Shown one piece after another: positions 14,920 to 50,619 of a DNA stretch of 54,904 nucleotides. A program made the position numbers and the translations under genes. Position 1 is the first letter of the stretch; every line of letters starts with the position of its first letter. Below the pieces are notes generated by a model. That model did no database searches. It was not told the DNA's origin and saw only the letters and a program-made list of their open reading frames with translations. Origin of the DNA: Lineus longissimus (lineage: Eukaryota); the NCBI RefSeq assembly GCF_910592395.1, contig NC_088313.1:17894500-17949403 (forward strand). Direction: 5' to 3'.

Positions 14920-16632
14920 TCAGGTAACATATATTTTCTTAATGTCTTTAGAGGGGCAGGTCATAAGGCAACGCTTACAAACAACTTCATTTGACAATTT
15001 TGTCACTGAAAGTAAACAGTTCCTGCACAGATTATGAGAACATGGTAACAAATAAGCAGCTACCTTGGATGATTTGAGGTTCAAATGACACATCATACAA
15101 GTCGTATTAGTTTTTTTGGTATCTGTTGTTTCGTTTGATTGTGCAGGCTTCCTGAAGCTTGGCAAGTTTCCCAAAGTCAAGGACACAGCGGAGTCTAAAC
15201 TGTGAGATAAATTATTTTCATGTGATGCGTGAACAATACCCTTAGTTTTACTTGTAAATGTAATTGCTGTAGCAAAGGGCAGCTTGTGACAGGCGGTGGC
15301 TGGAAGATTCATATGAGAAGGGGCATCCCGTGACCGAACCTCAGTTGAAGTCAGTTCACCAGTGACATGCTTTGTTTTCCTCTTTTTGTCTCCAGGTCCA
15401 GGACTAGACTTATCAAGGTTATAACCTTTCCTTTTTAGTAAAACATTTTGAGAAGAATGAGACTTTGTAAGTGATACGGATACACTTTGAAAACTAGCTT
15501 CAGCTGGCACTTCAATGATCTCACAGTCACTGTCACTAGACTGTTCAGACACCTTCGGGGCAGTATCATACACAGTATTCAATGCCACATCCCGATTTAA
15601 GAAATCCATTGAATGTCCTATAGTCCTTGCAACATTTTCAAACTTCTTCCCACTTCTAACTAAGAAGTGATCAATCCTAACCTTTAGGGAACTGTTGGGA
15701 ATTGGCATGCTTGCACCATGGAAGGCAACTCCAGTGAATGGATCGTTGGGCGACCTTCCCCACTTTGCTTCTTCTGCTATGTGTCTCTCCATTGTGTTTT
15801 TATCAATTGAATGTCCCGATGGAAGTAGGAGCGGCATTGTCATAATATCACATGTTATCGGATCCATGAATTCATTCGGAATTTCATCCTCTTTTTTGAC
15901 ACTATCTGAATCAGTGACTCGAACCCCAGACTCTGATATGCTAGTGATCACATCAACCTCAACCTGTTGTTGTCCTCTAATAAAATCATTATGCAAGCCC
16001 CAAATCTTGTCAAGAATGGGCTTTGGGACTGAATGAGCAGGTTGACCAAAGACTGCAATACTTTTAACACATGGAATACACCCCCCTTGAGTTCGCGTAA
16101 TTCTTATCAAAACATGGCTTACACATGCTAGAGATGTATTTCGGAAGTGCCGTATTTCAGAGTTTATTACATTCTGTCCAGCACAGTCGATGTATTGGTG
16201 GGTATTTTGAGACATACCAGAATGCCGACAATATGATGGGTTAGAAAAGACGAATACTGTCGGTCCTGTATACTCCCTTAAACACCTTCCAACAGTCACA
16301 AACATTCCCTGCGTGTGAGGAGCTTGCTCCATCAGGAAATTATCATTCACAATCCAGGAATCTTTCACAAGATCTGAGCGGGTCATAATCTCGAATCCAC
16401 ATGATTTCTGTGAGCCGACAATAGGGTTGATGACAATTTTCTGTATGTAAATGTTACACGGAAATGCAATGGTCATCATCACAGGTGGTTTGATGAAACG
16501 TTCTGCTAGAAATCCATTATTTTTTACCAAATAATTGTCTGAAATTATGTTCGTGATTTCATGTCCATCAACACTGACTTTATCACAGAAGATCCTGGGT
16601 TTCAGGTAAGGACTGCAAAAATCCCAAGCCAT
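14920..16632 (-). CDS. UBOX5: U-box + RING E3 ubiquitin ligase, UBOX5/RNF37-like; the whole 570-aa CDS lies in one exon
   Basis: Residue-level matches to the UBOX5 N-terminal domain (FIKPPV..; HVLIRITRTQGGCIPCVKSIAVFGQPA), a central U-box (PNEFMDPITCDIMTMPLLLPSGHSIDKNTMERHIAEEAKWGRSPNDPFTGVAF) and a C-terminal C3HC4 RING (CMMCH..CSHNLCRNCL..CKRC). ATG at 16632 aligns with the human start; an acceptor-like cag 26 nt upstream suggests a separate 5'UTR exon. Confidence 0.8.
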   Translation of the reverse strand: MAWDFCSPYLKPRIFCDKVSVDGHEITNIISDNYLVKNNGFLAERFIKPPVMMTIAFPCNIYIQKIVINPIVGSQKSCGFEIMTRSDLVKDSWIVNDNFLMEQAPHTQGMFVTVGRCLREYTGPTVFVFSNPSYCRHSGMSQNTHQYIDCAGQNVINSEIRHFRNTSLACVSHVLIRITRTQGGCIPCVKSIAVFGQPAHSVPKPILDKIWGLHNDFIRGQQQVEVDVITSISESGVRVTDSDSVKKEDEIPNEFMDPITCDIMTMPLLLPSGHSIDKNTMERHIAEEAKWGRSPNDPFTGVAFHGASMPIPNSSLKVRIDHFLVRSGKKFENVARTIGHSMDFLNRDVALNTVYDTAPKVSEQSSDSDCEIIEVPAEASFQSVSVSLTKSHSSQNVLLKRKGYNLDKSSPGPGDKKRKTKHVTGELTSTEVRSRDAPSHMNLPATACHKLPFATAITFTSKTKGIVHASHENNLSHSLDSAVSLTLGNLPSFRKPAQSNETTDTKKTNTTCMMCHLNLKSSKVAAYLLPCSHNLCRNCLLSVTKLSNEVVCKRCLMTCPSKDIKKIYVT

Positions 16633-17767
16633 TGTCACCAAACAACCTTGCACCTGACCTGTAGTGTAAAAAGAGAATGCAATTAATACATGACTGACAT
16701 GACTGAATGAAGAGATGGGACAACAGACCTCACCTACACGGTGCAGTGGTGGGCTGGTCACTGTTCACTAAAAGATTGGAGAACCAAATCGTCACAATTC
16801 TGTTGGCGTCATATGCAATTTACGGACGTCGCAGTTTAACATAAGTTGTGTACCGGTGCTACGGAATACGCTGCAGACACAAGTAGAAAAGAATCATATT
16901 GAATTTGGCTAAATCACAGGGCTCGGCCAGCCCTCTGAATCTGGTGATGGGGGGCGGGCGAGGGGGTTGATCCAGCAGCGGACATTTGTCTTGACTCTTG
17001 TTTGGCGCAGCTACAGCTTAAAGTGCTGTGGTACAGCCTAGTAGCAGTGTCATCATTGGCGAAATCGACCAAAGTTTGTGAGGGGCTGAGTTTCGTCCAC
17101 AAATAGATCTGTTTACACACTATGGCAATGGCGTATTGCAGGTACACGTCAACGGATCATTGTCGGACGTCAGTTCGCCAAGAAAACCAAAGGAATCGAA
17201 GGATTCATTGAACTCATCAACACATCACTAGTTTTCAGTGAAGTGCAACTGTATTCCTAGGTGAATCACTTTGGTATATAGAGAGTAAGATTACAATTAA
17301 CTCACGTTAAAGTTTGAGTTCCGGGAGGTAGCGTTGTCAGTAAGTTGGTTTAGGGGCGCAATAACCTAGCTTATAGCGAGCAATTAGTACACTAAGATTT
17401 CAGTGATTAACATAATAGTTGCAAGTATTTGGCATTTTAGACTCATATTTCGTGCTATAATAATTACGTTGAAAACATAATGCTCAAAATTGATTCATGA
17501 AAAAGTTGTTAGGGCAATATCAAGCAAGCAGTAATGGAAAAAAGTGTAATTCCATTAACTGAATATTGTTTTTAGACACTATAACATTTTAGGCCTACTT
17601 TTCCGTAAACCACGAGAACAATGTATGTGAAAAAAACAACACATATAAGTGAGGCGCCGAGTATACAGTAATTGTAAGGTTTAAGAAAAGCTCGGTCTCT
17701 AAAGTCTGGAGGTCCGGAGTCCGTAACTGTGACGGTCACGAGAGTGGTTTGTCCTAAGGCACCTATT

Positions 17768-17878
17768 CCATAGAGCTATACCCTATACTACACTATACGC
17801 GAACAATAGTTTCATGGTCATGCACCCTTTGTGAAGCCATTGTTCCCGTATAGTGTAGTATACCGTATACCTCTATGG
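17768..17878. repeat. Hairpin / inverted repeat with ~32-bp arms and a ~47-bp spacer
   Basis: ccatagagctataccctatactacactatacg ... cgtatagtgtagtataccgtatacctctatgg (about 29/32 complementary). Confidence 0.8.
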
Positions 17879-17964
17879 AGAAGGTGCCTTACGGATAGAT
17901 CTAGAGGGCGGTTTGGGGTTCCGCCGACGGTGCTCGCATGCATTGGTCGTATCCTCGAAACCTT

Positions 17965-18377
17965 TACAACGACAACAAAGCTGGTGGCATCCATGACAGT
18001 ATAGGAATTGACGGTGAGGTAACAAAAAATATCGTGGCATCCAATGACGGTATAGGAATTGACGGTGAAGGATCTCGTGGCATATCGGATGCGCATCCGA
18101 AGACGGTAAGGGAATTGACGGTGAAGGATCTCGTGGCATATCGGATGCGCATCCGATGACGGTAATTGACGGTAAAGGATCTCGTGGCATATCGGATGCG
18201 CATCCGAAGACGGTAAGGGAATTGACGGTGAAGGATCTCGTGGCATATCGGATCCGAAGACGGTAAGGGAATTGACGGTGAAGGATCTCGTGGCATATCG
18301 GATGCGCATCCGAAGAAGGTCAGGGAATTGACGGTAAAGGATCTCGTGGCATATCGGATGCGCATCCGATGACGGTT
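17965..18377. repeat. Minisatellite, ~7-8 copies of a ~56-bp unit (GAAGGATCTCGTGGCATATCGGATGCGCATCCGAAGACGGTAAGGGAATTGACGGT)
   Basis: Direct tandem copies visible; each unit contains the perfect 18-bp palindrome ATCGGATGCGCATCCGAT. Confidence 0.85.
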
Positions 18378-34678: not shown

Positions 34679-35022
34679 CCGCTGCTCCCTGCTTCAGACA
34701 TTTGTGTAACACAATTTTTCCATGTTTTGTTACAATGATAATAGCAGGTACAGTAATATGTAGGTTTACGTGCCTGGATGACTGGTTGTGTGTCCATGGC
34801 CCCGTAGTCTACAGACAAATGTATTCAAATCTCTGATAGTACGTAATGCAATTTCAGTGTTCAGGTTTCTCTCAGCTTTTCTATCTGCATCTTCCTGCTT
34901 CAGACATTTGTGTAACATGATTTATCATATCGTGGTACACTGATAATAGCAGGTACAGTGATATGTAGGTTTACGTGCCTGGGTGACTGGTTGTGTGTCC
35001 ATGGCCCCGTAGTCTACAGACA
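34679..35022 (+). repeat. Intronic repeat copy A (dimer of a ~180-bp unit), in the PPP2R2 intron after coding exon 5
   Basis: ctgcttcagacatttgtgtaaca...ccgtagtctacagaca occurs twice in tandem; the whole block recurs at 35538-35880. Confidence 0.85.
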
Positions 35023-35130
35023 AGTCTTCTCCCTTGATTGTATGAATGTTCTCAAATCAGATGCCCTCTCTGTTACTGGAATCCTCCTTTGAGTTTTGGT
35101 AATATCACTATTTGCCTTAACCTGTCCCAG

Positions 35131-35295
35131 TTATCGTTGACATCAAACCAGCCAATATGGAGGAGCTGACCGAAGTCATTACAGCGGCAGAGTTCCACCC
35201 GACGGAATGTAACGTGTTTGTTTATAGTAGCAGCAAAGGCACTGTTCGATTATGTGATATGAGAGCTCAGGCACTATGTGATCAACATGCCAAAT
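35131..35295 (+). CDS. PPP2R2: PPP2R2 coding exon 6 ([24 protein letters not shown]...[16 protein letters not shown])
   Basis: Highly conserved; cccag / gtaagt. Confidence 0.9.
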
Positions 35296-35537
35296 GTAAG
35301 TATAGTAGAGTAACCTCTGAAGAGTCGTCGTATTTTAGCTGGTCAAGGGCCACCTGTGCAATAGGCCTATTTTACCTCTTACAGATGCACCTAGAACACA
35401 CTGTCGTACTGACAATCACATAGTGAATATCAAGTGAACTGACTCGATTTGTGTAGAGTTGAGGTGTAAGACTGGTAATAGGAATAACTGCTTGTTAGTT
35501 ATGCTCCTGATTGAAGATGTTCATAGTTAAATGTTAG

Positions 35538-35880
35538 CATCTTCCTGCTTCAGACATTTGTGTAACACAATTTGCCCATATTGTGGTACAATGATAATAG
35601 CAGGTACAGTAATATGTAGGTTTACGTGCCTGGATGACTGGTTCTGTGTCCATGGCCCCGTAGTCTGCAGACAAATGTATTCAAATCTCTGATAGAACGT
35701 AATGCAATTTCAGTGTTCAGGTTTCTCTCAGCTTTTCTATCTGCATCTTCCTGCTTCAGACATTTGTGTAACATGATTTATCATATTGTGGTACAATGAT
35801 AATAGCAGGTACAGTAATATGTAGGTTTACGTGCCTGGGTGACTGGTTGTGTGTCCATGGCCCCGTAGTCTACAGACAGT
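35538..35880 (+). repeat. Intronic repeat copy B (same dimer), in the next PPP2R2 intron
   Basis: More than 90% identical by eye to 34679-35022, same orientation. Confidence 0.85.
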
Positions 35881-36833: not shown

Positions 36834-39800
36834 TACAAATGATGCCTAGGATTTTTCAATTGATAAGAGGGGAAAATGTGGCAGTGCTGGTCTGCTGGTT
36901 GCACTTCTGTACTTGGCTGTTCTCTTATCTGTGGCCACTGGGCATTGAAGCTTGTTCAAGGTACAGTCAGTGTTCATAAATGGACTATTTGCTGCACTCA
37001 AACTCAAGATAAACATGCTATACTTGAGAGTACTTCGCTGATAATGAGTTGCTTCTGTTGGCTGCAGTATCGGTGCATGAAGTAAACTATCAATTGTGCA
37101 TTCCATGGGCATGCATATCTATTGTCTTATCGTCCACCTATAACATATTTTTGGTCGAAGCTGGTGTTCAAAATATTGATACAGCAAATGCAATCAAGGA
37201 AAGGTCTTTCCGCATTGCCTTTTAGATCGGTGACAGTTAGACAGACCTCAAAACCGTAGAAGTTGCATTTCTAATGGCCAACACGCAAAAGCAGGAAAGG
37301 CTCAGATTTTACTCAAAACCGGTCTAATTTCTACTAAATGTAACTTCTACAGTTGTGCGAATATTGTAGTTAGGTTTAAAGAATAGGCTGTATCGTCTCC
37401 CACCGTTTAAAATGTTCCTCTGAACATGCACAAAACCTGAGGAATTGGTTATGGGGAATTTGGCTTCAAAATATGTCCCAGATATCTGATACTTTGTACT
37501 CTGAAAAAGCTTGATTCTCTCTTACTGGTGAAGTCTTTGAATATATGGTGCTATTTTTAACATAGCATAGACTTTAGATGACGCTTGTAACAATCATTTA
37601 CCGGTTCAAATATAAAATAAAACTGGGGTTGTTTTTCATTCAAGGCACTTAGCTGCAGGATTGTCCAGTTGTTTTTTTCTGTCAACCTGATTTGGGCAAT
37701 TTGCTGGCACGTGTTTATGTTTTATACACCTGACTGAATTATCCTACATTTCTTTTGTCTCATTTTGAAATTTCATGAGCCACTTAAATGATGTCCAACA
37801 TCTAGTCCCCAAAAGGGTACTGTTCAGCTACATTGCATATCTTTTCACATGTTTTCTATGTTGAGAGTTGGCTACTTCCTAATGAATTGTCACTTGCTGG
37901 CACTATCTTCACTGCCAAAGCTTAAAGATTTTCATTGCATTTCACCTTTTGTAATAGTAGATGAGTTGACTTGCTTTTGGGCCACGGGTGCACTTGGGGG
38001 TGGCAGTAGGGCAAGATTTCTTCATGTCCACTGAACAAATTATTTACCTGCAGAGTTAAGGTGTGTTTTTTGAATTTGCATAAAAACTGGAATTGGTTTA
38101 CTACATGTACTTAGTGCATCCGATGGCCCTTAGCCTTGTTCAGTTTTATAGAATGTGCTACAACCCTTGCACCTATATCTGACTTGGACCTTTGTGCGCT
38201 TGTAAGCCTTTGCACAACATTTCTGATTTGGAACAAAATACTAGTATTGTATAGTTAGTAGGTAGAATTAGGGGTGTTTGAGTTAATAAATTTCGTTTGG
38301 CAAGACCAAGAATTGATATAGACTGATTGGTGCACTGATCGACTTTTCTGATGAAGTATAAATAGATACTATCATTGCAGTTGATTGACGGGAATTCTTG
38401 ACTCCCACTTAGAGGAATAATGTGCTACTTTCATTGAATTTCCCTGTTGATCACAAATATTCCATTTCAGTACACGTGTTGTGTCATTCTATGACAACAA
38501 ATCTTACAAATCTAACTCATGCTTTTGTTTATAACTATTACATGTACATTCCATTGAAGTATTATGCTGCTTTAAAAAATGGTAAGAAATACTCCTTTCC
38601 CGACCAGATCGGAATGAAATGACACCACGTTGACCAGAATACGTTGCTATTTGAATGGCAAGTACTGATTCTGATGAATGAAAAACTTGTGCTAACAGGC
38701 TCTGTTATTAACTAATGAAAGGTTTTTTGTTACTTAAAATGTAGACTTGAATTGTGACTTAATAGTCTTCTGTGGAATTTTGATGAAATTTCTAAAGGGT
38801 GATAGTTTTCCTCTTGGCATTCCCAAATGATGTACTTGTTTACTGTCGATCGACGGCAGTTTTGGGAAGACCCTTGGTTTTGTGTGCGATGCGTTGTCCT
38901 ATCATGCCTTGAGGCTTAACAGGGTTTGATTGCAAAGGGAATGAGTGGCGAAGAAATATTAAAACACTACATCACATGTAATGTAATGTTATGTCATTTC
39001 ATAATTCATATTTCATAATTCTTGCTCCAATGCAAAATTCTACACTCCTTTAAGAAATTTCACAGAATTCATTTGTTCTCGTTTTGACTCTGTTGGTGCC
39101 CAGCAAGTTCCCTGCAGACCAGCAAACTGAACAATTTGTATATACCTATGTTGTCTTTGTATGTATCTAATAATTATTTTATATGTGCTCAATACTTTGC
39201 ATCATGTCTTGCAAGAAATGCACAACTTGCCTCTTCAAGAACTGGGAAGATTCCTGTTGTGGAAATTTGGAAAAGGTGCCTTGAAATGCCAAGAGTTCAT
39301 AATGTTTGGCAGGACTGATTAATTAATTTAAATCGAAAAATTCCTGTGTAAGCTTTCCCCGTCTGATGCATTGTTAACTCCAGAAACAGCTGAAGGAAAT
39401 AATTTCCAATCACAATTTGTTATGTATGATTGATAAATGAAATTGCCTCCAATGGAAGCAATATATCTTTGCAGTCGTTAGCTCCGCAATGTTAAGAAAT
39501 TTTTCATATTGAGAGAAATTTTCTATGGTTTATGGCCAAGCGACTTGTGTCAAATACGGTCGAGGTATGCTTCAAAATATTGCATGTCATTCATTGAAAT
39601 GAGAGTGATATCAAATATTTCTCAACATCTCGAACCATAGTTTTAGTTCTGACACTTGCTACTGTATATTCTCCCTGTTCTTGAAGGGTTCGTTCTGTGC
39701 TCTGCGTGTAAATACATATATTGATCAAACTAACCTACGGAAACTTTGTATTCAATCTTGCCATGGTGATTGCCGAATTCAGTTACAATTCTATTGGGAG

Positions 39801-40021
39801 CTGATAGAGATCGGTATAGAAGGTTGCTTGTCAAATTCCTGATAGGATGCATTCTGTAAAAGAAACTTAGCCATGGCTTTGGGAGAGAAAGAATGAAATA
39901 ATTTCTAAGCAAAGTGGGTAATAGAATGTTGCCGTCTTGAGAGTGCAAGCTAGGTTAATATTTGAATTTTACCCTGTAGAATGTTTGCAATGCACCATAT
40001 GTATTCAGACCCCTTGCTTGC

Positions 40022-40260
40022 AGGAGTCACGGTTAAAAGACTGTCATGCCTAGGTCGTACCTGTCTGTGTGCATCGCAGCTTTCAGGTGATGACTTCAGG
40101 AATTTGTTATCTAACTTTGACCAATTTCATCTGAACTTAAAATGGCAAGACCACTGTCTACAGTGTACATAGAGCAGAGGGCTCCACCTACAGTGTACAT
40201 AGAGCAGAGGGCTCCACCTAAACAAATTTGTACAGAAGTGGCCATCCTTTTCAATTCTAA
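40022..40260 (+). repeat. Dispersed repeat copy 1 (with an internal 30-bp tandem duplication at 40158-40217)
   Basis: Shares ggagtcac..gactgtcatgcctagg..gtacctgtctgtgtgcatcgcagctttcaggtgatgacttcagg..ctaactttgaccaatttcatctgaacttaaaatggcaagaccactgtc with 47022-47115 + 47967-48060. Confidence 0.8.
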
Positions 40261-41290
40261 CTCCTGCCCTTACACCACTGTCTCATATAAACCGTTACTT
40301 CTCATCTGTGAGTTCAGTGAAGTGTAGTTGCTCTGTTCCAGTTGTACTTGTGAATAATAATTTGTGCTGAACATTATTCTGTTGTCTTGCATTCCATCTG
40401 CTTAGTAAGCAAAATAACTGTCCGTTGTTTTGACTAGCAATGCTTGTCCTATATTGTAAGAGGTTAGGTTGGGCTCCCATGTTCTCTGTTAAACTCTGAA
40501 ATGCATGAAAAAGACGTAATAAATGTGAGTTTGAACAAGCCTTCTTCCGTGGATTTGGTTAGTCCTAAACTGGGTGCAAAAACAAAGAGTACATGTACAA
40601 TTCGGCATGATGATAAGTGACTGGAGAGAAAAATTCTTTTGACCTGTTTAGAAGTTGCTCCACTGAACAGTAATATTTTCTTACATCCTTCAATCAAGTC
40701 TGTTTCTAAGTTAAACTTGGTTCTAATAGAACACAAGGGGTAAATTTCTGAAAGGAAAATGATCGCTTTTTTTATAAAAAGTTGAGGTATGGAAGCACTA
40801 ATAATATTAGGGGGGGGGGATCACTGATATGTGCTACTGGCTGTTTCAGGGTAATTCCCAGTCAGAAGAGTTCAAGGCCTTTCTTTGACTTTCATTTTGT
40901 ATCTTTGGCATTGGAAGCTTTCATGGTACTTATTGTGCAGAATCCTGAATCAATGCAACCTCATTCCAGGAAGGGGTCACCCTGGGGACGTCATTGACAA
41001 GCTGTCAGGCTTGTGAGATTTGGATGTGATTACCTTAATCTTTTGTATAGAAAAAAAAGAGAAAATAAAACAAAAGAGATATTACATGTCTTGTTATGTT
41101 GATATTTCCAGCTTTATGTTTCATCTGAAGGTCTATCAAGAGGCACTCTCGGACCTCTGAAAAGTTCAATCCATTGCAGACTGCTTTGGAAAACCCTTGG
41201 GCAATCTTATTCCTTTGTCAAGGAGAAAAGTGGCAAAGATTCATCCCAATGAGAGGAATACCTTCAATTCGAATTTACAACATCTGTTCA

Positions 41291-41653
41291 TTTACTGATA
41301 TATAATAATCATCCGCTGTCCGCCCTAGTGGAGGTTGTAAGAGCTATCAAGTTCCAATGGATGGCCTATATTCGTAGATTGATCCCACATGTACATAGTC
41401 AGTTTGAACTATCAAATCGTTTTTCAGGTTAATCATAGCCAGCTCTACAATGTTGGTTGTAAGAGTCCTTCCTACTAGAGTTATCCACAGCAGCAAGAAT
41501 CTAAGCTTGATGTCTAATCCCTCAACAGCATCCCGATCCCTGATCTCCCGAGGAGGTTGTTGGAAGGCCAGCACCCAGACGCCTCGGTGCTGGCAGGACA
41601 ACACCCTTAGGCCTTGCTACTAGCGGGAGGAGAGCAATCCTTTTCCCTCCAAT
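41291..41653 (+). repeat. SINE-like dispersed repeat, copy 1 (just 3' of AS3MT)
   Basis: atataataatcatccgc..cctagtggaggttgtaagagctatcaa..ttaatcatagccagctct..ccttttccctcc; second copy at 45419-45836. Confidence 0.75.
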
Positions 41654-42021
41654 AGAGCAAAGGGGTCTGGATTGTGCTTCTGAAAAAAAACATTGACTGC
41701 AGTATTATAAATGGTCACTTTCTTTATTCAATGACTCGCCATAACGAGTCTCACTGGGGTCTCAACTATTAACGTAGATGTAAACTCAACACATCATGTC
41801 GTTATACATACTTGGTGGTATTAACAAGAGACCCTGCTTTGAACTGAGCTCTTTTTATTAGGTCTATCTGAACACAAAATTATTTGAAGAGAATTGTCCT
41901 TTAATAGTTTTGAGTAATGAAGGCAGCAATATAGACTTGTAGCAAAAACAGATACCAGTAAAGCTATCCATTTCTGCTTATGGACAATGCCAACATTCAC
42001 ATGATAGTGAATGACTTTACT

Positions 42022-42153
42022 TGCCTTGGTTGTTGGACAACAAGCAGATCCATTCTGTCCCTTGTCACATGGCTGTAAGGTGAAGTCACTATTGTATCGC
42101 GAGCAGTGTAAGAAGGTGGCAACCTCCGAATCCACTGATACTATATCACCTGC
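42022..42153 (-). CDS. AS3MT: AS3MT coding exon 7 (AGDIVSVDSEVATFLHCSRYNSDFTLQPCDKGQNGSACCPTTKA..); 3' end uncertain
   Basis: tttccag acceptor at 42154-42155. The open frame runs on to 41821, but a GTAAAG donor at 42021-42016 after ..TTKA, and the similarity of GSACCPTTK to the AS3MT C-terminal CCGTKK, suggest the true CDS ends near here or splices to a short final exon. Confidence 0.5.
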
Positions 42154-42373
42154 CTGGAAAATAATGGAAGGACTCCAAGTTTAGAAAAGTTCCTCCACTG
42201 CGGAAAGTAGAAGAAAGGTTAAAGACGATAGGCAACATTAATGCCTTTATAATGGAGACATTGTCACATCCATGTAGGTGTAAGCAACATTTCAAGCTAC
42301 ACACTTACCCCCTATCACCAAAACACAAACTATCTATTCTATCATGTCTATCTATTCCTTGGTTTACACTTAC

Positions 42374-42513
42374 TTTGAATGATGTGGCATAGTCTAAGAA
42401 GAATTCTTCCTCTGCTCCCTCAATAGTGCCTTCATAAATCACTTGACATTTTGGTTGAAGGTCGAGCGGTAATTTCACCAGACGATATGTGACCGATACA
42501 TACTTGTAGCCAG
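42374..42513 (-). CDS. AS3MT: AS3MT coding exon 6 (GYKYVSVTYRLVKLPLDLQPKCQVIYEGTIEGAEEEFFLDYATSFK)
   Basis: catgcag acceptor, GTAAGT donor; aligns with human AS3MT ..RFVSATFRLFK..RCQVIYNGGITGHEKEL.. Confidence 0.75.
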
Positions 42514-42900
42514 CTGCATGAAAATAGGTATAGACGATTTTCAGGAATGTAATGGTGCAATGATGTGGGGAAAGATGTCACATCTGAGCTGGGCACCAAT
42601 CCATGACTACAGACAAGGGAGAACCAGGCCAAAATAAGCCATCCAGGTAAAATCTCTGTGGCGACCAAACATGGCACCAAACTTGAGCAACTTGAAAAAG
42701 AAGTACCGGTACACATTTCTTTGCTGCTGTAAAGTAGGAAAGCTCCAACAATGCTTTCTGTGTGAAAACCATATTGACTTGGCCATGTTTTGTGGAACTG
42801 GATTGAAAACATTCAAATAATTTATTTGAACTAATTTGATATCACATTGAACTCTGGCACTGAAATGAAAGCTTTGAATATTAATTTCAAAAATACTTAC

Positions 42901-43114
42901 TGACAAGCTTCGCCATTTCTTCGTTGTCAACAGTGATGGGGCTTGCCTTCACAAGTCTTGGTTTAGAGAAACCAACTTCCTCAGCCAGCTGCACCAACTC
43001 TGTCCAAGCTAGAGCCCCTGAGAGGCCCTCTCCCCACAGAACCTTCTCTTTTCGGATATGCTCTGGCAAGACTTTGTCACAGTAGACGTCACTGAAGTAC
43101 ATTTCTCCTCCAAC
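42901..43114 (-). CDS. AS3MT: AS3MT coding exon 5 (VGGEMYFSDVYCDKVLPEHIRKEKVLWGEGLSGALAWTELVQLAEEVGFSKPRLV..)
   Basis: ttttag acceptor, GTAAGT donor; conserved GGELYFSDVY..KVLWGEC motif of arsenite methyltransferase. Confidence 0.85.
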
Positions 43115-43532
43115 CTAAAACCGATTTTCAGAAGTGTACAGTGGAACCCTGGTCGGGACCACCCCGGTAACGCGACCACCCCACTATGACGACCAAGAAT
43201 CGCCGGTCCCGAATGGTTTCCTCTCTAATTACCATTACAGGGCCCCCCAGTAACATGACCACCTCGGGACCCAGACCACAACCACTTGATTGGGTGGTCC
43301 CAATGACCAAATTCACCCCTCTAACTCGACCAAAGGAACTTATGAAAGGATTAGGGTTAGAAAAAATAGTCCAAATATTTTTTTCGCTTTTTTTTTCTCC
43401 TTGTAAGTTTGAAAATTTTTCCAAATTTTGAACTTGATCCCAGAACATAAGAACAATGTTACAGTTCAAACAAACTTATCAGATGTCTATCAGCTTGACA
43501 GTTGAAATCTTCGAAAATTCTGCTTGACTGAC

Positions 43533-43602
43533 CTTAAGTGAATCGTACGCCTCCCTCAGAACTGCCCTTTTATCTGGGGATAGATTAACTACACAGTTGG
43601 AT
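43533..43602 (-). CDS. AS3MT: AS3MT coding exon 4 (VSNCVVNLSPDKRAVLREAYDSLK)
   Basis: tttcag acceptor, GTCAGT donor; conserved VSNCVINL (SAM-MTase motif III region). Confidence 0.8.
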
Positions 43603-43864
43603 CTGAAATAAGAATATAAATCACATCACATCAATGTGTCAAATAACCAAACAATGCCATTATTCTTGCAATCAGTATCAGTACCTTTGACCAGACAGTC
43701 CAAAATTGCTTTAATGAATGAGAGAATCAATTATTAACTAAAGCACTTCACTTTCTTACAGAGCATTATAATTACCGGTAAATCATATTCATCCTTTAAT
43801 TTGCACTGATAAGATGGACACCATAAAACTTAATGTAGATGCACTGGCCTAGTCTTTCACTTAC

Positions 43865-44001
43865 ACTATGACATCATACTCATTCTTTGCAATGCCTGCT
43901 TCCCAAAGCCTCTCAATGTAACCCTTCTTGAACTCAACATTTGGTTTGCTGAATCCAAATGTTTTGGTGTGGTAATCAATGTACTTCCGTGCCACATCAA
44001 T
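43865..44001 (-). CDS. AS3MT: AS3MT coding exon 3 (IDVARKYIDYHTKTFGFSKPNVEFKKGYIERLWEAGIAKNEYDVI)
   Basis: ctccag acceptor, GTAAGT donor. Confidence 0.8.
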
Positions 44002-44325
44002 CTGGAGTATAATAATAACATATAATGGCATGGAAATCAAACAGAATGTAGAGAAGCAATTTCAATGTGCAAGCGAATCTGTGCTTGATCCTATCAATTC
44101 CCTTTCTCTGGCAGAATCCTTAGAATGTGCTGAAACATACCTTTATTTCCAATGAGTCACATTTTAACACTCTCAGAAGTTGATTACTCAGATCTTAACT
44201 TCCAGTTAGCTATCAGCTTTGTTCTTATGATCCAACTTAGGACACACAAGTATTGCTATATTTTCATGGCTGCAGCAATGTTTTAAAAGTCTAAGGATTA
44301 ACTAGAATGTCTTGACTCTCCTTAC

Positions 44326-44476
44326 CTGTTCTTCTGTCATATCGATTCCTGTCACTTGGCCATTCTCTCCCACAAGTTTACTGAGGATGTAACAGTCTCT
44401 TCCGCTTCCACTCCCGAGGTCCAAAACTTTACACCCCTGGACATTTTCTGGGATGATGAGTCCACAACCATAATAC
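44326..44476 (-). CDS. AS3MT: AS3MT coding exon 2 (YYGCGLIIPENVQGCKVLDLGSGSGRDCYILSKLVGENGQVTGIDMTEEQ)
   Basis: attcag acceptor, GTAAGG donor; SAM-binding motif I LDLGSGSGRDCY identical to AS3MT. Confidence 0.9.
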
Positions 44477-44712
44477 CTGAATCATAAATGATACATAAGT
44501 TTTTGTCAGGTAGTATATAAGAAAGCTGCAACTTATAGAAAGTAACCGTAGGCCTACCCTTACAACTCTACATTGGATTGATCAGACAAGCTGCCCTTGA
44601 TCCCCCGTTTCATGAGGCCTATACGTCGTCGGACCTGTTGCTGATTGCGATGCATACCAAAATCAGAACCTGGGACTGAAGCCAACAGCAAAGAGGCTAG
44701 TGACATACTCAC

Positions 44713-44873
44713 TTAACAACAACATCGTCATGAACAAGCTTCATGGCTTTCAGAACATGATTTGGCATTTTCTGGGAAGCAGTTTTGCAAACATTTGTCT
44801 TCAAATCATCAGATGTTTTCAGCACTTTTCCATAGTAGTTTTTGACATCATCAAGCAAGGACTGTTCAGACAT
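44713..44873 (-). CDS. AS3MT: AS3MT coding exon 1 (MSEQSLLDDVKNYYGKVLKTSDDLKTNVCKTASQKMPNHVLKAMKLVHDDVVV..)
   Basis: ATG at 44873; GTGAGT donor at 44712-44707; matches the AS3MT N-terminus (..VQTYYGQVLK..). Confidence 0.8.
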
Positions 44874-45418
44874 GTTGAAAAGGTTTGTGAAATATATATA
44901 TATCTCAATCAGAGAATACGAGTTAAATGGCAACTTTTGTTTTATAATTATGGCATCTGCCGTGCGGCGAGATCTCATGAATAGGGGATTGGTGGTGCGC
45001 ACGCGTATGCTATGAACGGATGTCCGCCTCTTGAAAGATACGGATGATTTATCTGTGTGAGGTCACTGTGTCACACATTTTTTATGGGTGTCTTTATTTT
45101 TGTGCCTTACATCCAACACATTATCTATCGTCTACATATTTTGATTTCAAAATGAAACCTTTTCTTGGTGATGCAGCCTATCTAATAGATCTAAAGTGAC
45201 GGAAAAGACGCTACTGGACGCCAATTCTGGGCAAGTGTGCTCTGACCGGGATTCACTGGCCGCCAACTTTGGCGTCGAGAGGCGTCACTGAGGCGATGGC
45301 GTCCAGTAGCGTCTTCTCCGCCACTTTAGGCTGCCCTTTTGAAATCATGTGACATCAAGACGCACGCTGAATGGCCATAGCCTCGCCACCGACGCCAAGC
45401 TTTAGGCTTCTAATATAT

Positions 45419-45836
45419 AATAATCATCCGCCCTAGTGGAGGTTGTTGTAAGAGCTATCAAATTCCGTTGGATGGCCTATTCGAAGATTCATCCCAATCA
45501 GAGGCATCCTACCTTGTCAGCTTAAACCATCAAATCGTTTTTCAGGTTAATCATAGCCAGCTCTGCAATGTTAGTTATAAGGGCCTTACTACTAGAGTTA
45601 TCCACACAGCTGGAGTCTAAGCTTAATGTCTAATCCCTCAACAACACTCCGATCCCTTATCTCCTGAGGAGGAGCACCACGAACCTGTGCCGTTGGGAGG
45701 ACAGCACCCCGACGCCTCAGTGCTGGGAGGAGAACACCCTTAGGCTTTGCTACTAGCGGTAGGACAGTATCCCGAATCCTTCTTGCTTGTGCCGCAACAT
45801 CCGACATCAGCAGATCCTTTTCCCTCCGTCTGTCAA
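45419..45836 (+). repeat. SINE-like dispersed repeat, copy 2 (5' of AS3MT)
   Basis: Same family as 41291-41653, with internal indels. Confidence 0.75.
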
Positions 45837-45877
45837 CTGTCCTCAACAGTTAATTGGAAGAAGAAGAGAAGAAGAAG

Positions 45878-45950
45878 ACATACTCACTTAGCAACAACAT
45901 CGTCATGAACAAGCTCCAAGGTTTTCAGAAGATGATCTGGCATATATTAG
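45878..45950 (-). pseudogene. Orphan fragment of AS3MT exon 1 (3' end plus donor), duplicated ~1.1 kb upstream of the intact gene
   Basis: gacatactcacttagcaacaacatcgtcatgaacaagctccaaggttttcagaagatgatctggcat is about 85% identical to 44701-44770 (the exon-1/intron-1 junction). Confidence 0.6.
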
Positions 45951-46245
45951 ATGCTAGAACGTCCATAACTCAAACCCTCAGTATTTCATTATTTCCTTGT
46001 GCCAAACCATCTAATAGATACTATATCGTCCATGTTATGTTTTCAAATAATTCTTTTTTCTTTGTGATTCAAGCATATCTATTTAGATGCTAGAACGTCC
46101 CTAATTCAAACCCTCAGTATTTCATTATTACTTTGTGCCAAACCATCTAATAGATACTATATCGTCCATGTTATGTTTTCAAATAATTCTTTTATCTTTG
46201 TGATCTTATAGATGCTAGAACGTCCATAATGCAAACCCCCAGGAG
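45945..46245. repeat. Tandem repeat, ~135-bp unit x about 2.2
   Basis: tagatgctagaacgtcc..caaaccctcagtatttcattat..gtgccaaaccatctaatagatactatatcgtccatgttatgttttcaaataattctttt repeated. Confidence 0.8.
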
Positions 46246-47021
46246 ATATTATGTGGAAATTACAATAGTGTTCATTTACTTTTGACCGACGTCCGGGACG
46301 TACACACTTTGTGAATCAAAACATGTTCTTTGGTTCGAACTACGATCATGCATCGCCTCAATAGACAACCTTGATGTTATTTTTTTTTTTTTTATAAAGG
46401 AAAGAAAGTTCAAATACTGAAAAGAAATCTTCTAAGTCTGATATTCCAGATTATGATCTATTGATTTCTTTGACATATTTGACATCACGTACCAAGCGTG
46501 ACAGGTATATGCGGTCATTAAATTACCTTCATTGTAACAATTGAATAAAATAGTCACCGCGTTCACATTCAAAAATCATACACTTTGATATATAATCAAT
46601 ATTGCATGAAAAATATTTTTATTGAATATTGCAACATATATCATGCCATAGTCGTGTATTTCAAAGAATTTAATCACAAAACGTATCCATCGTTTATGAA
46701 CATAAAACCGGTCGATATAATATAGCCTACCTGTTATTATATCCAGTCACAAAGGCTGTCCTCGGGAAATAGAGAGAACGGGGTGGGTTGTTTTCTCGGG
46801 TTGACGTCATCAAGTCAAACTTATTGTTTTGTATTATTGTTTTTAAGCATCCTACCAGGCATTGTAAACACACTGTTTCATTTCATTTCTGACAACAGGC
46901 AATGGTATCTTATCGTCAAAATACCACCTCGTTTTCGTTCTCGTTCTCGGATCGAAAATCTTAACCGCTCTACTAATAGTCTTTCCTCCAGTCGATATTG
47001 ATTGCCGGATCCGGAGTCACT

Positions 47022-48060
47022 GTAAACAGACTGCCATGCCTAGGATGTACCTGTCTGTGTGCATCGCAGCTTTCAGGTGATGACTTCAGGAATCTGTCAT
47101 CTAACTTTGACCAATAGCATGCCGCGAAGTTACTATTTATAGCTCACAAGGTCATTTGCACAAGATATTGATGACGTTTTAGTCACGTGACAGTCGGACA
47201 TCGACACTTATTTCTACGCATTTGAGCTTATTTCAAAGTCAATTATCTTTGACCCTGCATTGTTTTTAGCATGAATGATACCATAGAGTCAGAGAGAGAA
47301 ATATTCAGAACAATAATGTAGTATTTCCAACACTCGGACATGTGCCAGATTGAATCTAACTGCCCTATAGTTAGAAAGCCTGAATCCATTACGAAACCGC
47401 ATGTTTGTCCGACATTAGCGAGTTTCCGCATCGCTTACGATTACGATTACGATTACGATTTGTGTTTGACGTCAGCGATTTTTGGTGCTACGTCGTCCCC
47501 AGAGAAATCGTCGATGGTACTTTCGTCTCGTTCTTACGAGGATTCCGGCTGATCTTCGTAAGTCGAAAAACGATTACATGGATTAGCGAAAAGCCTATTT
47601 TCCACGCTACATATCAAATTCAAGGTGAAATATTCATTGAAGAATTCTTTAGAACATATCTGTCAAACATAGGAACTGCATTTAATTTGATCAACGGCGA
47701 TTTTGATCATGTTTTAGGGCCGAGAAAAGTGCACCCAGAGCATGAGAGCAGAGTATAGGGCCTATACTACAGTACACCAAGTCGTTGGTGTGAATGCGGA
47801 AACAAAATTTCTGGTTCATGCCGGTTTTGAGAGTATTACGATTACGACTTTGAAATCGTAATCGTAATCGTAATCGTAAGCGATGCGGAAACTCCCTATT
47901 GCCTGTAATTCAGCGATGGGGAAATAGAGGGCAGCAGCTGCAGTGACGTCATCTTCGCGGAATGCTATTTCATCTGAACTTAAAATGCCAAGACCACTGT
48001 CCAGTGTACATGGAGTAGGGCTCCACCAAAATACATTTGTACACAAACGGCCCGCGGCCT
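47022..48060 (+). repeat. Dispersed repeat copy 2, split by an 851-bp insertion (47116-47966)
   Basis: The left part 47022-47115 and right part 47967-48060 are collinear with copy 1 at 40022-40260. Confidence 0.8.
47116..47966. mobile_element. Non-autonomous TIR element (MITE-like), 851 bp, inserted into the dispersed repeat
   Basis: 14-bp terminal inverted repeats AGCATGCCGCGAAG / CTTCGCGGAATGCT (13/14). An apparent 2-bp AT duplication is present relative to the empty site ccaatttcat in copy 1. Internal ~39-bp inverted repeats containing (CGATTA)4 lie at 47422-47460 and 47853-47891. Confidence 0.65.
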
Positions 48061-48278: not shown

Positions 48279-48810
48279 TAGGCGGGAGGGGACATAAATC
48301 AGAATATATCGGCCGATTAATTACTTGCGCCGCAAAGGCCTCCCGCGAATGATGCGCCGCAACAATGCCCCGCTAAAAACACGCCGCAAAAGAATGCGCC
48401 GTAAAAATCTCGCCGCGTGACCCAATTTAAACCAATCAGGAGCCAAGGACGGTTTGAATTTTGCGGCAGAGGTATTTTCGCGGGAGTCTTCTGCACGATT
48501 TGCGGGGGACTTATGCAAATTTCGACACTTTAGCGGCGCACTTCTTTAACCAATCAGAGACATCGTAACTTCGTAAACCCGCCGCCAATAAGTTGGAAAG
48601 TAACGATGTCTCGAAATTTGCATAAGTCCCCCGCAAATCGTGCAGAAGACTCCCGCGAAAATACCTCTGCCGCAAAATTCAAACCGTCCTTGGCTCCGCT
48701 TACCAGTCAGAACGGCCCCTGGTCAAAACGGCCCCCGCTTTAATAGAGTCAAAACGGCCCCGAGTCAAAACGGCCCCGGGTCGAAACGGCCCTGGGTCAA
48801 ATGGGCACCT
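48279..48810 (+). repeat. Left TIR of the long-TIR element, including a nested foldback and a 14-bp tandem array
   Basis: Inverted match to 50337-50619. Confidence 0.8.
48436..48698. mobile_element. Palindromic foldback (MITE-like, ~260 bp) nested inside the left TIR only
   Basis: ggagccaaggacggtttgaattttgcggcagagg...cctctgccgcaaaattcaaaccgtccttggctcc forms a near-perfect inverted repeat. The right TIR shows the uninterrupted sequence ggagccaagggtatccagtcagaacgg. Confidence 0.65.
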
Positions 48811-48876
48811 ATAGCGGCGGAGTGTAGGGTATCGTGTGAAGTGGGCGGGTATAGTTGAGTGTATAGTTGAGGCGGT

Positions 48877-49770
48877 TTAGGGATAAGTATTTTTAGGGGT
48901 GGGAACTTCGATCCTGTGATTCAGGAACACCTGGTTTACAATTTCTGCAGCAGGCGTGAAGATCTCTTTGGCTGCTGACTTCTTGATCTCTATTGCCACA
49001 TTCGTTGCAATGGCAGCCCCTAGCTTGCCGGGATGGACGTGGGGTAGACTGCCTCGTATAAAGTTGGAACCTTTCTGGAGCACCGTGGCCTTGCACCAGA
49101 CATTCTTGTTACGCACGCTACATCTCCAGGTCCGGTTCCCGTTCTGTCTCTTCGTGGCCTTCACTGTGTATAGGTAACCATGACTGTCGGCAAGCTTTTC
49201 TTTTCCTTTCTGTGAGCCATTGTAGATTATTTCGTACAGTGCAGGTGCTGCAGCTCTGGCGTACGGCAATGGGTCTGGTTCTCGCATTGAAGACTCTTGA
49301 AGGACGGATGGGATATCAAATTCGCCGAGGGTGGGGTCACTGCTGGTGCTCTGTTCTTCCTGGTGCTGCTCGGCAATATACTCGTCGACCACCATCTGCA
49401 GCTCTGCTTCACTTGGCATGCCGTGGTCTACGTCTACGTCTGGTGGTGGCTCGTCGTCTTCCAGTACTTCTTGATGATCTTCAGCCCATTCGTTCATGAT
49501 GACCTGTAACGTGGAAGTGTTTTGCAGTGACAATCGTGTGCTCTCGCCCTGGGGCTCCCCAACACTAAGGCGGCTGTAACTTCTTGCCTGACACCGTTGG
49601 CACCTCCAGCTGATCGCATTCCCCAGCTTGACAGCGGCACGGTACTCTTTCTGGCTTATACCCGTGTTGCAGATTCGGTGTTGCCACTGGTCACATCCTT
49701 CGCACTGGAGGCCATGTTGTCGTCTCTTCACTTGCTTGCGGCAGGAGATGCAGGGATCCTCTTCTGTCAT
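48877..49770 (-). CDS. 297-aa protein with an N-terminal PHD-type zinc finger and a C-terminal FLYWCH/WRKY-like zinc finger
   Basis: CISC..(x11)..CEGCDQWQHRIC..(x20)..WRCQRCQ fits a C4HC3 PHD. YLYTVKATKRQNGNRTWRCSVRNKNVWCKATVLQKGSNFIRGSLPHVHP fits the FLYWCH pattern (F/Y..W.C...C...H.H). An acidic central region (EDDEPPPDVDVDHG) is present. The ORF is intact and lies inside the long-TIR element. Confidence 0.6.
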   Translation of the reverse strand: MTEEDPCISCRKQVKRRQHGLQCEGCDQWQHRICNTGISQKEYRAAVKLGNAISWRCQRCQARSYSRLSVGEPQGESTRLSLQNTSTLQVIMNEWAEDHQEVLEDDEPPPDVDVDHGMPSEAELQMVVDEYIAEQHQEEQSTSSDPTLGEFDIPSVLQESSMREPDPLPYARAAAPALYEIIYNGSQKGKEKLADSHGYLYTVKATKRQNGNRTWRCSVRNKNVWCKATVLQKGSNFIRGSLPHVHPGKLGAAIATNVAIEIKKSAAKEIFTPAAEIVNQVFLNHRIEVPTPKNTYP

Positions 49771-49856
49771 AGTAAGGTGTTGATGAAAGTAGCGTCGAGT
49801 TGTAGCAGCAATGAAGTCTTGGAATAAACTGATGAAGATCTTGAGAATTCTGGGGG

Positions 49857-49864
49857 TTTATATA
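49857..49864 (-). promoter_or_regulatory. TATA box (TATATAAA) ~90 bp upstream of the PHD-FLYWCH ORF's ATG
   Basis: Minus-strand gactatataaaccccc; position appropriate for a core promoter. Confidence 0.35.
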
Positions 49865-50336
49865 GTCATCGTGACGAGATGATAAAATGAACAGTACTCA
49901 TTCTTGAGCTCAGTCACAAGATTAAAGAGACAGTGCGACCCCTCTCCACTCTATATGTATTTGGTCAGATGTAAAATTATTGAACAAAATAGATGTCTAG
50001 AAGTTAAAGGTAAAAGGAACCTCAGCAAATATCACGAAAAGTAGCCTTGATTAATTCCCCTTGCTTAATTAATGATCTTATATTTTTCTGTGTGATCACG
50101 GACCTGAATAAAGTTCGATGGTGTAGACCTACATTAGCCCTACATATAGAGAATAATGTAGAGAAGATTAATAATAATAACAATAATATGGGCGAACAGG
50201 CCAAAAACCAGATAACGCAACTTCTAAGTTTTAAAAGTGCATAACATCTGCTTTCTTATCTCGTTACCACTGGTTACACGCACGCAGTAAAAAAAGTTAT
50301 CTAGTTCAGATAGGTTACTACCACTAAACTACCAAG

Positions 50337-50619
50337 GGCCGTTTTGACCCAGGGCCGTTTTGACCCAGGGCCGTTTTGACTCGGGGCCGTTTTGACTCTA
50401 TTTAAAGCGGGGCCGTTTTGACCAGGGGCCGTTCTGACTGGATACCCTTGGCTCCTGATTGGTTTAAATTGGGTCACGCGGCGAGATTTTTACGGCGCAT
50501 TCTTTTGCGTCGTGTTTTTAGCGGGGCATTGTTGCGGCGCATCATTCGCGGGAGGCCTTTGCAAGCGCAAGTAATTAATCGGCCGATATATTCTGATTTA
50601 TGACCCCTCCCGCCGCCTA
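50337..50619 (-). repeat. Right TIR of the long-TIR element
   Basis: Reverse complement of the left TIR; (GGGCCGTTTTGAC)n array at 50337-50443. Confidence 0.8.

Follow-up and report, generated by a model that had tools for sequence, protein, structure and literature searches.

A probable duplication scar beside an arsenite methyltransferase-like gene of Lineus longissimus

The AS3MT-like gene and its intact paralogue

The window, which is the whole stretch of 54,904 nucleotides of Lineus longissimus DNA analysed here, carries an intact AS3MT-like gene (XP_064631599.1) on the minus strand, the coding sequence of which (41620..44873) is divided into eight exons: 44873-44713, 44476-44326, 44001-43865, 43602-43533, 43114-42901, 42513-42374, 42153-42025 and 41679-41620. 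An RNF37-like gene is its neighbour. The spliced translation of the eight exons is identical to the predicted protein P0001 (XP_064631599.1), and the arsenite methyltransferase-like protein of L. longissimus matches the protein of this gene at 100% (E 1.7e-224). Exon 7 has a donor of the GC-AG type, and the last splice was therefore overlooked in the earlier note on this DNA. The short terminal exon, which begins just ahead of a DPF motif, is also found in Tubulanus polymorphus. A GC-AG intron 7 followed by such a short exon is easily missed in annotation, and the 3' exon then mimics an intergenic repeat.

XP_064631599.1 contains a Methyltransf_31 domain (Pfam, E 3.9e-32), with the fold and motif of SAM-dependent methyltransferases, and is a clear homologue of human AS3MT (PDB 8xt7, E 5.9e-104). 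AS3MT/ArsM proteins have conserved cysteines, C32, C61, C156 and C206 in the human protein, and arsenic is bound by C156 and C206. The protein of the window resembles human AS3MT and CmArsM in its SAM-binding DLGSGSG motif and in C29, C58 and C153, the equivalents of human C32, C61 and C156. It differs from them at position 203, the counterpart of arsenic-binding C206, which is a glycine, so that it has only three of the four conserved cysteines expected of a competent arsenite methyltransferase. The cysteine equivalent to C206 is present in 26 of the 27 other AS3MT sequences aligned, among them the paralogue P0121, the exception being a Tubulanus protein (P0049) that also has glycine. The C206S form of human AS3MT has no activity on iAs(III) or MMA(III) (PMC3877260). 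A further difference concerns the cysteine-rich CC...CC C-terminal tail, which is kept across animal AS3MT in the protein alignment and has been lost from XP_064631599.1 through a frameshifting deletion. General decay of the gene was considered and rejected, as a relative-rate test against its paralogue gave 6:6.

This paralogue, XP_064630677.1 (P0121), is an intact AS3MT protein encoded on the same chromosome, with 93.5% amino-acid identity to XP_064631599.1; the species does have a second intact copy. It retains the cysteine-rich C-terminal tail. The order of RefSeq accessions is uninformative for placing it, since the accession of a gene at a distance of 26 kb is 1,024 numbers removed.

AS3MT-derived pieces inside a minisatellite

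Two related segments in direct orientation, each of about 350-420 bp, lie on the minus strand on either side of most of the gene, R1 (41299..41650) at its 3' end and R2 (45413..45827) upstream. All the similarities described in the earlier note proved genuine, well past what chance would produce. Self-BLAST of the window aligns 41295-41634 with 45410-45767 at 79% over 369 columns (E 4.5e-88), or at 88% (285/324) when substitutions only are counted. These segments had been described as a SINE-like repeat beginning 170 bp past the last exon; R1 in fact overlaps the true terminal coding exon (tblastn of residues 334-353 of P0001 places it at 41682-41623), and consists of the 3' two-thirds of that exon, from the codons for EGKG, together with the 3'UTR. 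About half of the repeat is former coding sequence for the animal-conserved tail. Relative to R2, R1 has a 38-44-nt deletion between AAGGAT microhomologies, which shifts the reading frame so that the protein ends in ...LLSSR* and removes the cysteine-rich tail, out-of-frame remnants of which can still be read (CSPPASSKA*GCCPASTEASGC...GDQGSGCC*). R2 is the pseudo-terminal exon and 3'UTR of a second AS3MT copy. Its translation is still legible (EGKGSADVGCCGTSKKDSGYCPTASSKA*GCSPPSTEASGCCPPNGTGSWCSSSGDKGSECC*), with 70% amino-acid identity to the C-terminal tail of XP_064630677.1 (E 1.4e-7) and an in-frame TAA stop; both R1 and R2 have TAA where the paralogue has a glutamine codon. The two segments finish at the same point (...GATGATTATTATATAT), beyond which their flanks are unrelated, and a possible AGTAAA poly(A) signal lies near this end at 41296; the opposite end of the homology falls within the coding exon. 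The supposed mobile repeat is, therefore, the AS3MT terminal exon, with its former cysteine-rich coding tail, and the 3'UTR, present twice.

Further upstream, on the same strand, lies a fragment of exon 1 (45877..45943), referred to here as exon 1', which comprises codons 36-54 (MPDHLLKTLELVHDDVVAK), the GT donor and the beginning of intron 1. It had been described as a 73-bp stretch with about 85% identity to the 3' end of exon 1, and the resemblance proves to be closer: 44702-44768 and 45877-45943 align without gaps at 91% over 67 bp (E 9e-21), of which 56 nt are exonic and 11 nt, including the GT, belong to intron 1. All six differences are non-synonymous, none is silent, and the intron nucleotides are identical. 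Retention of the donor and of these 11 intron nucleotides indicates that the copy came from DNA and not from spliced RNA. At the amino-acid level exon 1' is closer to XP_064630677.1 (84%) than to XP_064631599.1 (68%), and it shares with the former L40 and T43, states that none of the 26 outgroups has. Exon 1' and R2 are separated by 49 nt of filler (45828..45876, minus strand) including a (TTC)n run detected by TRF; in blastn-short searches of the window this filler matches only itself. No other AS3MT exon remnants were detected in the window by tblastn (E<=10), so that exons 2-7 and codons 1-35 are missing from the second copy.

These pieces form part of a block that interrupts a tandem array. 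The earlier note was right about an array of about 135 bp following the fragment (45944..46245, plus strand, 2.2 units; TRF gives a period of 136 with 95% matches for 45947-46245), but a diverged partial unit (45091..45190, plus strand), running from phase 40 to 136 and then from 1 to 6, also lies on the gene-proximal side, and what had appeared as an array beyond the fragment is a three-unit 136-bp array split by the block at 45191-45943. The local alignment score of the partial unit is 85, against 32±6 for shuffles (maximum 55) and a maximum of 64 for 248 other segments of the window. The array resumes at about phase 127, where it shares a GCAT microhomology with the end of exon 1', and an overlap of 9-11 nt, ATATATTAGAT, matches ATCTAATAGAT at 45180-45190 in the junction alignments. 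Excision of 45191-45952 in silico yields one continuous 3.1-copy array from 45091, and the maximum score of this test falls exactly at 45191-45952; such a joining is permitted by ~19 of the 136 array phases. The proximal end of the block is a near-perfect palindrome of 139 bp (45191..45329) with 33-nt arms that are 94% complementary (DNA fold -44.4 kcal/mol, z = -7.0), of which there is no second copy in the window, and it is followed by an 83-bp spacer (45330..45412) that matches nothing else there. A 13-nt inverted repeat occurs at two internal boundaries of the block.

An outer direct repeat on the plus strand is present 1.05 kb past the 3' end of the gene (X_A, 40023..40245) and again beyond the array (X_B, 47013..48052, in the two parts 47013-47115 and 47967-48052), the two copies being 92% identical in one stretch of 103 bp and 89% identical in another of 65 bp. 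A TIR element of 851 bp (47116-47966), bordered by an AT target-site duplication, separates the two parts of X_B, and X_A represents the empty site. X_A possibly belongs to an older or larger duplication, or is an unrelated repeat. No homology between the two units was found beyond R, exon 1' and X, even at word size 7.

Origin of the upstream block

R2, exon 1' and the satellite remnant follow one another as R1, exon 1 and the proximal array unit (45091-45190) do, in matching orientation, and they lie collinear with the intact gene, on the same strand and 0.5-1.1 kb upstream of it, the retained pieces having diverged to a similar extent (R 88%, exon 1' 91%). The earlier note had raised the idea of a duplicated AS3MT unit, since mostly deleted, and R2 and exon 1' bear it out: on balance, the block is probably the stump of a second AS3MT copy, placed head-to-tail just upstream of the gene by tandem duplication and then reduced by internal deletions. 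We infer the order and number of these events as follows. A tandem duplication would have covered ~3.9 kb, beginning where the 3'UTR ends (about 41299), taking in the whole gene with its promoter and stopping at 45190, which is phase 6 in the first unit of the upstream 136-bp minisatellite. A deletion of ~3 kb, from position +12 of intron 1 to position +30 of the terminal exon, would then have taken exons 2-7 from the upstream copy, leaving the 49-nt filler with (TTC)n as its junction. A further deletion of ~0.4 kb, joined at the GCAT microhomology, may have taken away the promoter along with codons 1-35 and all but a remnant of the duplicated satellite unit. The survivors, in gene order, would be the 3' end of exon 1 with its donor and the cysteine-rich terminal exon with its 3'UTR, together with a satellite remnant of 9-13 nt at the far end of the stump.

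The stump has the features of an unprocessed duplicated pseudogene, in that it lies head-to-tail beside a collinear, adjacent paralogue, has preserved the 3'UTR as well as an exon-intron junction, has an in-frame stop, has lost most exons and shows similar divergence across its pieces. It departs from the usual case in that nothing but the two ends of the gene remains, within a minisatellite, and in the palindrome and 83 bp at its junction, which duplication does not explain. Nothing corresponding to these 222 bp is present beyond R1, and an additional insertion or junction filler is therefore needed; three or four separate events are required in all. The phylogenetic signals also conflict: exon 1' groups with XP_064630677.1, yet R1 and R2 share a TAA where that protein has glutamine, so that homoplasy or gene conversion must be invoked. 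Moreover, the agreement in array phase would be expected equally from a one-step insertion with target-site duplication.

Such an insertion is the main rival to duplication, and is possible, although it seems clearly the less likely of the two. A break in the first 136-bp array unit would have been repaired by template switching (MMBIR/FoSTeS or an SDSA-like process), bringing in pieces of an AS3MT paralogue (the terminal exon with its 3' flank and the exon-1/intron-1 junction), filler and the palindrome, and leaving a target duplication of 9-11 nt; a full second gene would never have stood at the site. The block is indeed a patchwork of at least five segments with GCAT microhomology and filler at its junctions, as in known FoSTeS/MMBIR insertions, where short segments of nearby genes are joined in this manner with a short flanking duplication. 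The 9-11-nt overlap and exact restoration of the array on excision, the natural inclusion of the palindrome and 83 bp in the insert, and the 13-nt inverted repeat at two internal boundaries all accord with this mechanism, and the derived residues of P0121 type in exon 1' would allow a donor other than the adjacent gene. However, template switching requires no particular order, whereas every AS3MT-derived piece in the block follows the order and strand of the gene next to it; unless the neighbouring copy served as template, the collinearity and orientation of the pieces and their position upstream would be coincidence. The apparent target-site duplication could just as well be what is left of the end of a tandem duplicate.

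The remaining explanations are far weaker. That two mobile SINE-like copies flank AS3MT, one having captured or transduced the exon-1 fragment, is very improbable. Like tRNA-derived SINEs, R is 350-420 bp long and occurs as two direct copies near a gene, and there is a weak third partial match beside R1 (41236-41293, E 0.002). Unlike them, it is coding at one end and contiguous with the gene, the annotated terminal coding exon lying within R1 and about half of its length having once encoded a conserved tail; it lacks a tRNA-, 7SL- or 5S-like head, its copies have neither an A-rich or simple-repeat tail nor target-site duplications of their own, and only two copies were found by nhmmer in the 54.9-kb window. 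ARAGORN detected no tRNA-like sequence in the window, and there was no Rfam match at E<=1 in 39500-48000. A SINE identity was accordingly rejected, as was Helitron or TIR capture. The juxtaposition of non-contiguous fragments of one gene, with introns largely gone, recalls capture by Pack-MULEs and Helitrons, but no TIR pair, subterminal motifs or 5'-TC...CTRR-3' ends bracket 45191-45943, only the 13-nt internal inverted match and the self-contained palindrome being present. AS3MT is, thus, not flanked here by mobile elements, and the region provides no evidence for the repeat-mediated exon capture suggested earlier or for any other transposon-mediated capture. It is scarcely more credible that the reverse transcriptase of a LINE inserted a retrocopy of a mis-spliced AS3MT transcript, one in which exon 1 ran directly into the terminal exon, and created a target-site duplication. 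Exon 1 and the terminal exon almost adjoin, the homology stops near the possible poly(A) signal, and there is a 9-11-nt flanking duplication; against this, intron nucleotides and an intact donor are kept, a poly(A) tract is absent, the 5' end begins within exon 1, and the sole flanking duplication encloses a larger block, with 222 bp of unrelated DNA between it and the end of the 3'UTR. This origin was also rejected. It is, lastly, unlikely that the fragment has been kept because it functions. It might serve as an alternative first exon, its ATG (45943) and donor (45887) being joined to the second exon of the intact gene downstream to give an N-terminally truncated AS3MT, or as a minigene, in which the same donor is spliced across a mini-intron of 46-64 nt into the R2 exon to give an ORF of 93-99 aa. 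The frame is open from the ATG, exactly where the homology ends, to the donor, which matches the parent along with the intron nucleotides; (TTC)n with an AG behind it looks like a polypyrimidine tract with its acceptor, and all six differences are replacements. Nevertheless, six of six is not significant at such a length, the ATG lies in a poor Kozak context (T at -3), the ORF across the mini-intron reads the tail in the wrong frame, and a collection of ~15 billion proteins, in which the RefSeq models of L. longissimus are included, contains no such isoform. The stump most likely has no role. It would be an ordinary duplication scar, a kind of feature already known.

Implications for arsenic methylation

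With two intact copies and one stump, AS3MT has been duplicated recently in L. longissimus. The link to arsenic tolerance drawn in the earlier note finds no support here, the intact local copy lacking an arsenic-binding cysteine. A more speculative reading, which we regard as possible but doubtful, is that the locus records a functional turnover, with a local AS3MT unable to bind arsenic in the canonical manner and a non-canonical role recurring in nemerteans. The stump may then be what remains of a copy of canonical type, the lineage of which persists elsewhere on the chromosome, and the non-canonical role may be that of a pseudoenzyme or of an enzyme with a new substrate. Replacement of the cysteine by glycine and loss of the tail arose independently in one of two Tubulanus paralogues, which would be a sign that duplicated AS3MT has repeatedly taken on a non-canonical role in nemerteans. 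Since the copy in the window has neither this arsenic-binding cysteine nor the cysteine-rich tail, gene counts alone would overstate arsenic-methylating capacity.

The AS3MT gene and the repeat at its 3' end

The AS3MT-like gene of the window lies on the minus strand at 41.6–44.9 kb and its spliced translation matches XP_064631599.1 (P0001; 353 aa, "arsenite methyltransferase-like [Lineus longissimus]") with 100% identity (E 1.7e-224), the next matches, from molluscs, fishes and other nemerteans, being at most 60% identical. A second L. longissimus protein, XP_064630677.1 (P0121; 380 aa), shares a 90% cluster with P0001, to which it is 93.5% identical, has a longer tail (...LEGKGYTDVGCCGPSKKDSGCSPPTSSKAQGCCPAST) and is assigned to the same 21.66-Mb chromosome; RefSeq accession order is unusable as a proxy for gene position. 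The differences between the two proteins cluster in exon 1 (7 of 54 residues, vs 12 in the next ~290), a bias that could stem from gene conversion that homogenised the remainder of the gene, or from a faster-evolving N-terminus. With GT/GC-AG introns chosen so as to give P0001 exactly, the gene has eight coding exons, at 44873-44713, 44476-44326, 44001-43865, 43602-43533, 43114-42901, 42513-42374, 42153-42025 and 41679-41620. The donor of exon 7 is GC (GC-AG intron 7, 42024-42023, ACCAAG|gcaagt), which is the sole way to the RefSeq protein. This donor is probably the reason that the earlier note put a distance of 170 bp between the last exon and a SINE-like repeat: with the terminal exon hidden, the open reading frame was continued to 41824, and the true terminal exon in fact overlaps the repeat.

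The two copies of this repeat, R1 downstream of the gene and R2 upstream of it, align over 369 columns with 79% identity (41295-41634 vs 45410-45767; self-BLAST, E 4.5e-88), or 88% if only substitutions are counted. The last 20 residues of P0001 (KHNPDPFALLEGKGLLSSR) are found by tblastn within R1, at 41682-41623. R2 translates as TEGKGSADVGCCGTSKKDSGYCPTASSKA*GCSPPST..., with 70% identity to the P0121 tail (E 1.4e-7), and reads further as ...EASGCCPPNGTGSWCSSSGDKGSECC*. In an alignment, a DPF motif and, after it, a GCCG...CC tail are common to the AS3MT of molluscs, annelids, hemichordates, amphioxus and vertebrates, and the Tubulanus polymorphus orthologue has an equally short terminal exon starting just before DPF. 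About half of the "repeat" thus codes, or once coded, for AS3MT, the remainder being 3'UTR, as judged from translation and alignment. Homology between R1 and R2 starts 30 nt into the terminal exon, at GGAGGGAAAAGG, and ends at ...GATGATTATTATATAT. Relative to R2, R1, which belongs to the functional gene, lacks 38-44 nt between two AAGGAT motifs (~41636-41650), a deletion that shifts the frame to LLSSR*, with loss of the tail. No tRNA-like sequence was found in the window, the repeat region has no Rfam match, neither copy has a tail or a target duplication of its own, and nhmmer detected no third copy in the 54.9 kb; these features contradict both a SINE identity and a SINE insertion. A weak partial match directly past the R1 end (41236-41293) to R2-internal sequence (45484-45540; 71% over 58 nt, E 0.002) hints at more small rearrangement in the 3' flank of the gene.

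The interrupted array and the origin of the relic

The orphan exon-1 fragment beyond R2 (45877-45943) is 91% identical to 44702-44768 over 67 nt without gaps (self-BLAST, E 9e-21) and comprises codons 36-54, the GT donor and 11 nt of intron sequence identical to that of the parent; as part of the intron is kept, it is not an ordinary processed retrocopy. It differs from the adjacent gene by six changes, all of them replacements (N38D, V40L, A43T, M44L, K45E and V53A). Three of these, L40, T43 and A53, are the P0121 states, L40 and T43 being absent from all 26 outgroup AS3MTs compared and A43 96% conserved, which places the fragment closer to the P0121 lineage than to the neighbouring gene. R1 and R2, however, both have TAA where P0121 has Gln, ahead of the conserved terminal CC. 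The few informative sites are therefore in conflict, suggesting gene conversion, homoplasy or mosaic ancestry. No other AS3MT exon remnants were found in the window by tblastn.

A tandem array does follow the fragment, as the earlier note described, with 136-bp units from 45947 onward, but a diverged partial unit also flanks the relic on the side nearer the gene, at 45091-45190 (local alignment score 85, vs 32+/-6 for shuffles, maximum 55, and a maximum of 64 for 248 other segments of the window). This partial unit starts at phase 40, continues to phase 6 of the following unit and ends exactly at the foreign sequence; at 45940-45944 the array restarts in phase ~127, with a GCAT in common with the fragment's end, and the two junctions agree in 9 of 11 nt (ATCTAATAGAT vs ATATATTAGAT). 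Removal of 45191-45952 in silico restores one 3.1-copy array from 45091, and a scan of all end-points placed the maximum TRF score (533) exactly there, joining being possible only within ~+/-10 nt or one period later. The relic block thus interrupts the array and does not merely adjoin it. The 753-bp block consists, in plus-strand order, of a near-perfect 139-bp palindrome at its proximal edge (45191-45329; 33-nt arms, 94% complementary, DNA fold z = -7.0) with no other copy in the window, an 83-bp segment without assigned identity, R2, a 49-nt filler (45828-45876) that contains (TTC)n and matches nothing else in the window, and the exon-1 fragment. A 13-nt inverted repeat (GCTTCTAATATAT / ATATATTAGATGC, 12/13 complementary) at the 3' boundary of R2 (45406-45418) and the fragment/array boundary (45942-45954) may be due to chance in AT-rich sequence or be a trace of template switching.

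The relic is an unremarkable partial pseudogene next to a gene that was duplicated recently. We consider it slightly better than an even chance that it arose by tandem duplication of 41299-45190 (~3.9 kb), a segment that stretches from where the 3'UTR ends to phase 6 in the first unit of the array, after which the upstream copy would have lost sequence in two deletions. Such a duplication would leave the surviving terminal exon, exon 1 and array end ordered and oriented as in the intact copy, directly upstream of it, with similar divergences (88-91%), but it leaves the palindrome and the 83 bp at the junction unaccounted for and requires three or four events. Composite insertion in a single step, through template-switching repair that left a target duplication of 9-11 nt, would account for the microhomology, the patchwork structure and the additional 222 bp; it appears rather unlikely, and under it the collinearity with the neighbouring gene would be coincidental unless that gene or its tandem sister served as template. 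The restored array does not discriminate between tandem duplication and composite insertion, since both predict it. It is highly improbable that the exon-1 fragment is functional, as an alternative first exon or minigene: its frame is open from ATG to donor, and splicing into R2 across a mini-intron of 46-64 nt would yield an out-of-frame ORF of 93-99 aa, but the ATG context is poor and the product is absent from the protein catalogue.

Every similarity in the earlier note proved real, and its interpretation as a duplication scar was essentially right, R2 and the exon-1 fragment deriving from a second AS3MT copy; repeat-mediated exon capture, which it also proposed, was wrong. Transposon capture is contradicted by the tested features of the relic, and retroposition likewise, by the retained intron nucleotides among others.

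Arsenic-binding residues of the surviving copy

Human AS3MT binds arsenic through C156 and C206, and the C206S mutant is inactive towards both iAs(III) and MMA(III) (PMC3877260). Alignment to PDB 8xt7, with the correctly aligned C156 as a control, places Gly (codon GGC; 43020-43022, minus strand) at the equivalent position, 203, of P0001; Cys is found there in 26 of 27 other aligned sequences, including P0121. The window copy also lacks the conserved CC...CC tail, whereas P0121 retains both tail and Cys. Gly203 and the frameshifted tail together suggest that the window copy would be unable to carry out canonical arsenic methylation. P0001 is nevertheless not in overall decay: measured against outgroups, it and P0121 have equal numbers of substitutions (6:6). 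Gly, with no CC tail, is likewise seen in one of the two Tubulanus paralogues (P0049). Identity between paralogues is 93.5% in Lineus and 65.9% in Tubulanus, and each pair is a lineage-specific duplication in a neighbour-joining tree, so the Cys-to-Gly change and tail loss arose twice.

Other features of the window

A direct repeat absent from the earlier note, X (~190-220 bp), brackets the whole AS3MT-plus-relic region (40023-40245 vs 47013-47115 + 47967-48052, ~90% identical), its first copy containing a 30-bp internal tandem duplication; X may be a repeat family or belong to an older duplication of larger extent. The second copy is split by an 851-bp non-autonomous DNA-transposon-like insertion (47116-47966) with a 2-bp target duplication (AT), 14-bp TIRs (AGCATGCCGCGAAG / AGCATTCCGCGAAG) and, internally, inverted repeats of 49 nt with (TTACGA)n; the first copy keeps the empty site. 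A 2.3-kb element (48281-50614) is bounded by long inverted repeats (48281-48448 vs 50614-50446, 97.6%; 48703-48801 vs 50441-50343, 96%) and has an internal palindrome (48439-48697). Its 297-aa ORF (48877-49770, minus strand) is absent from the protein collection and has FLYWCH and PHD zinc-finger matches. Two clusters of tandem or inverted repeats have no relation to the AS3MT region: 17755-18376 (17.8-18.4 kb; ~106-bp units plus an inverted segment) and 34685-35878 (34.7-35.9 kb; ~206-bp units, 91-96% identity). A single-exon RING finger protein 37-like gene, identical to XP_064630575.1, lies at 14920-16632 on the minus strand and encodes DUF5918, U-box and RING domains.
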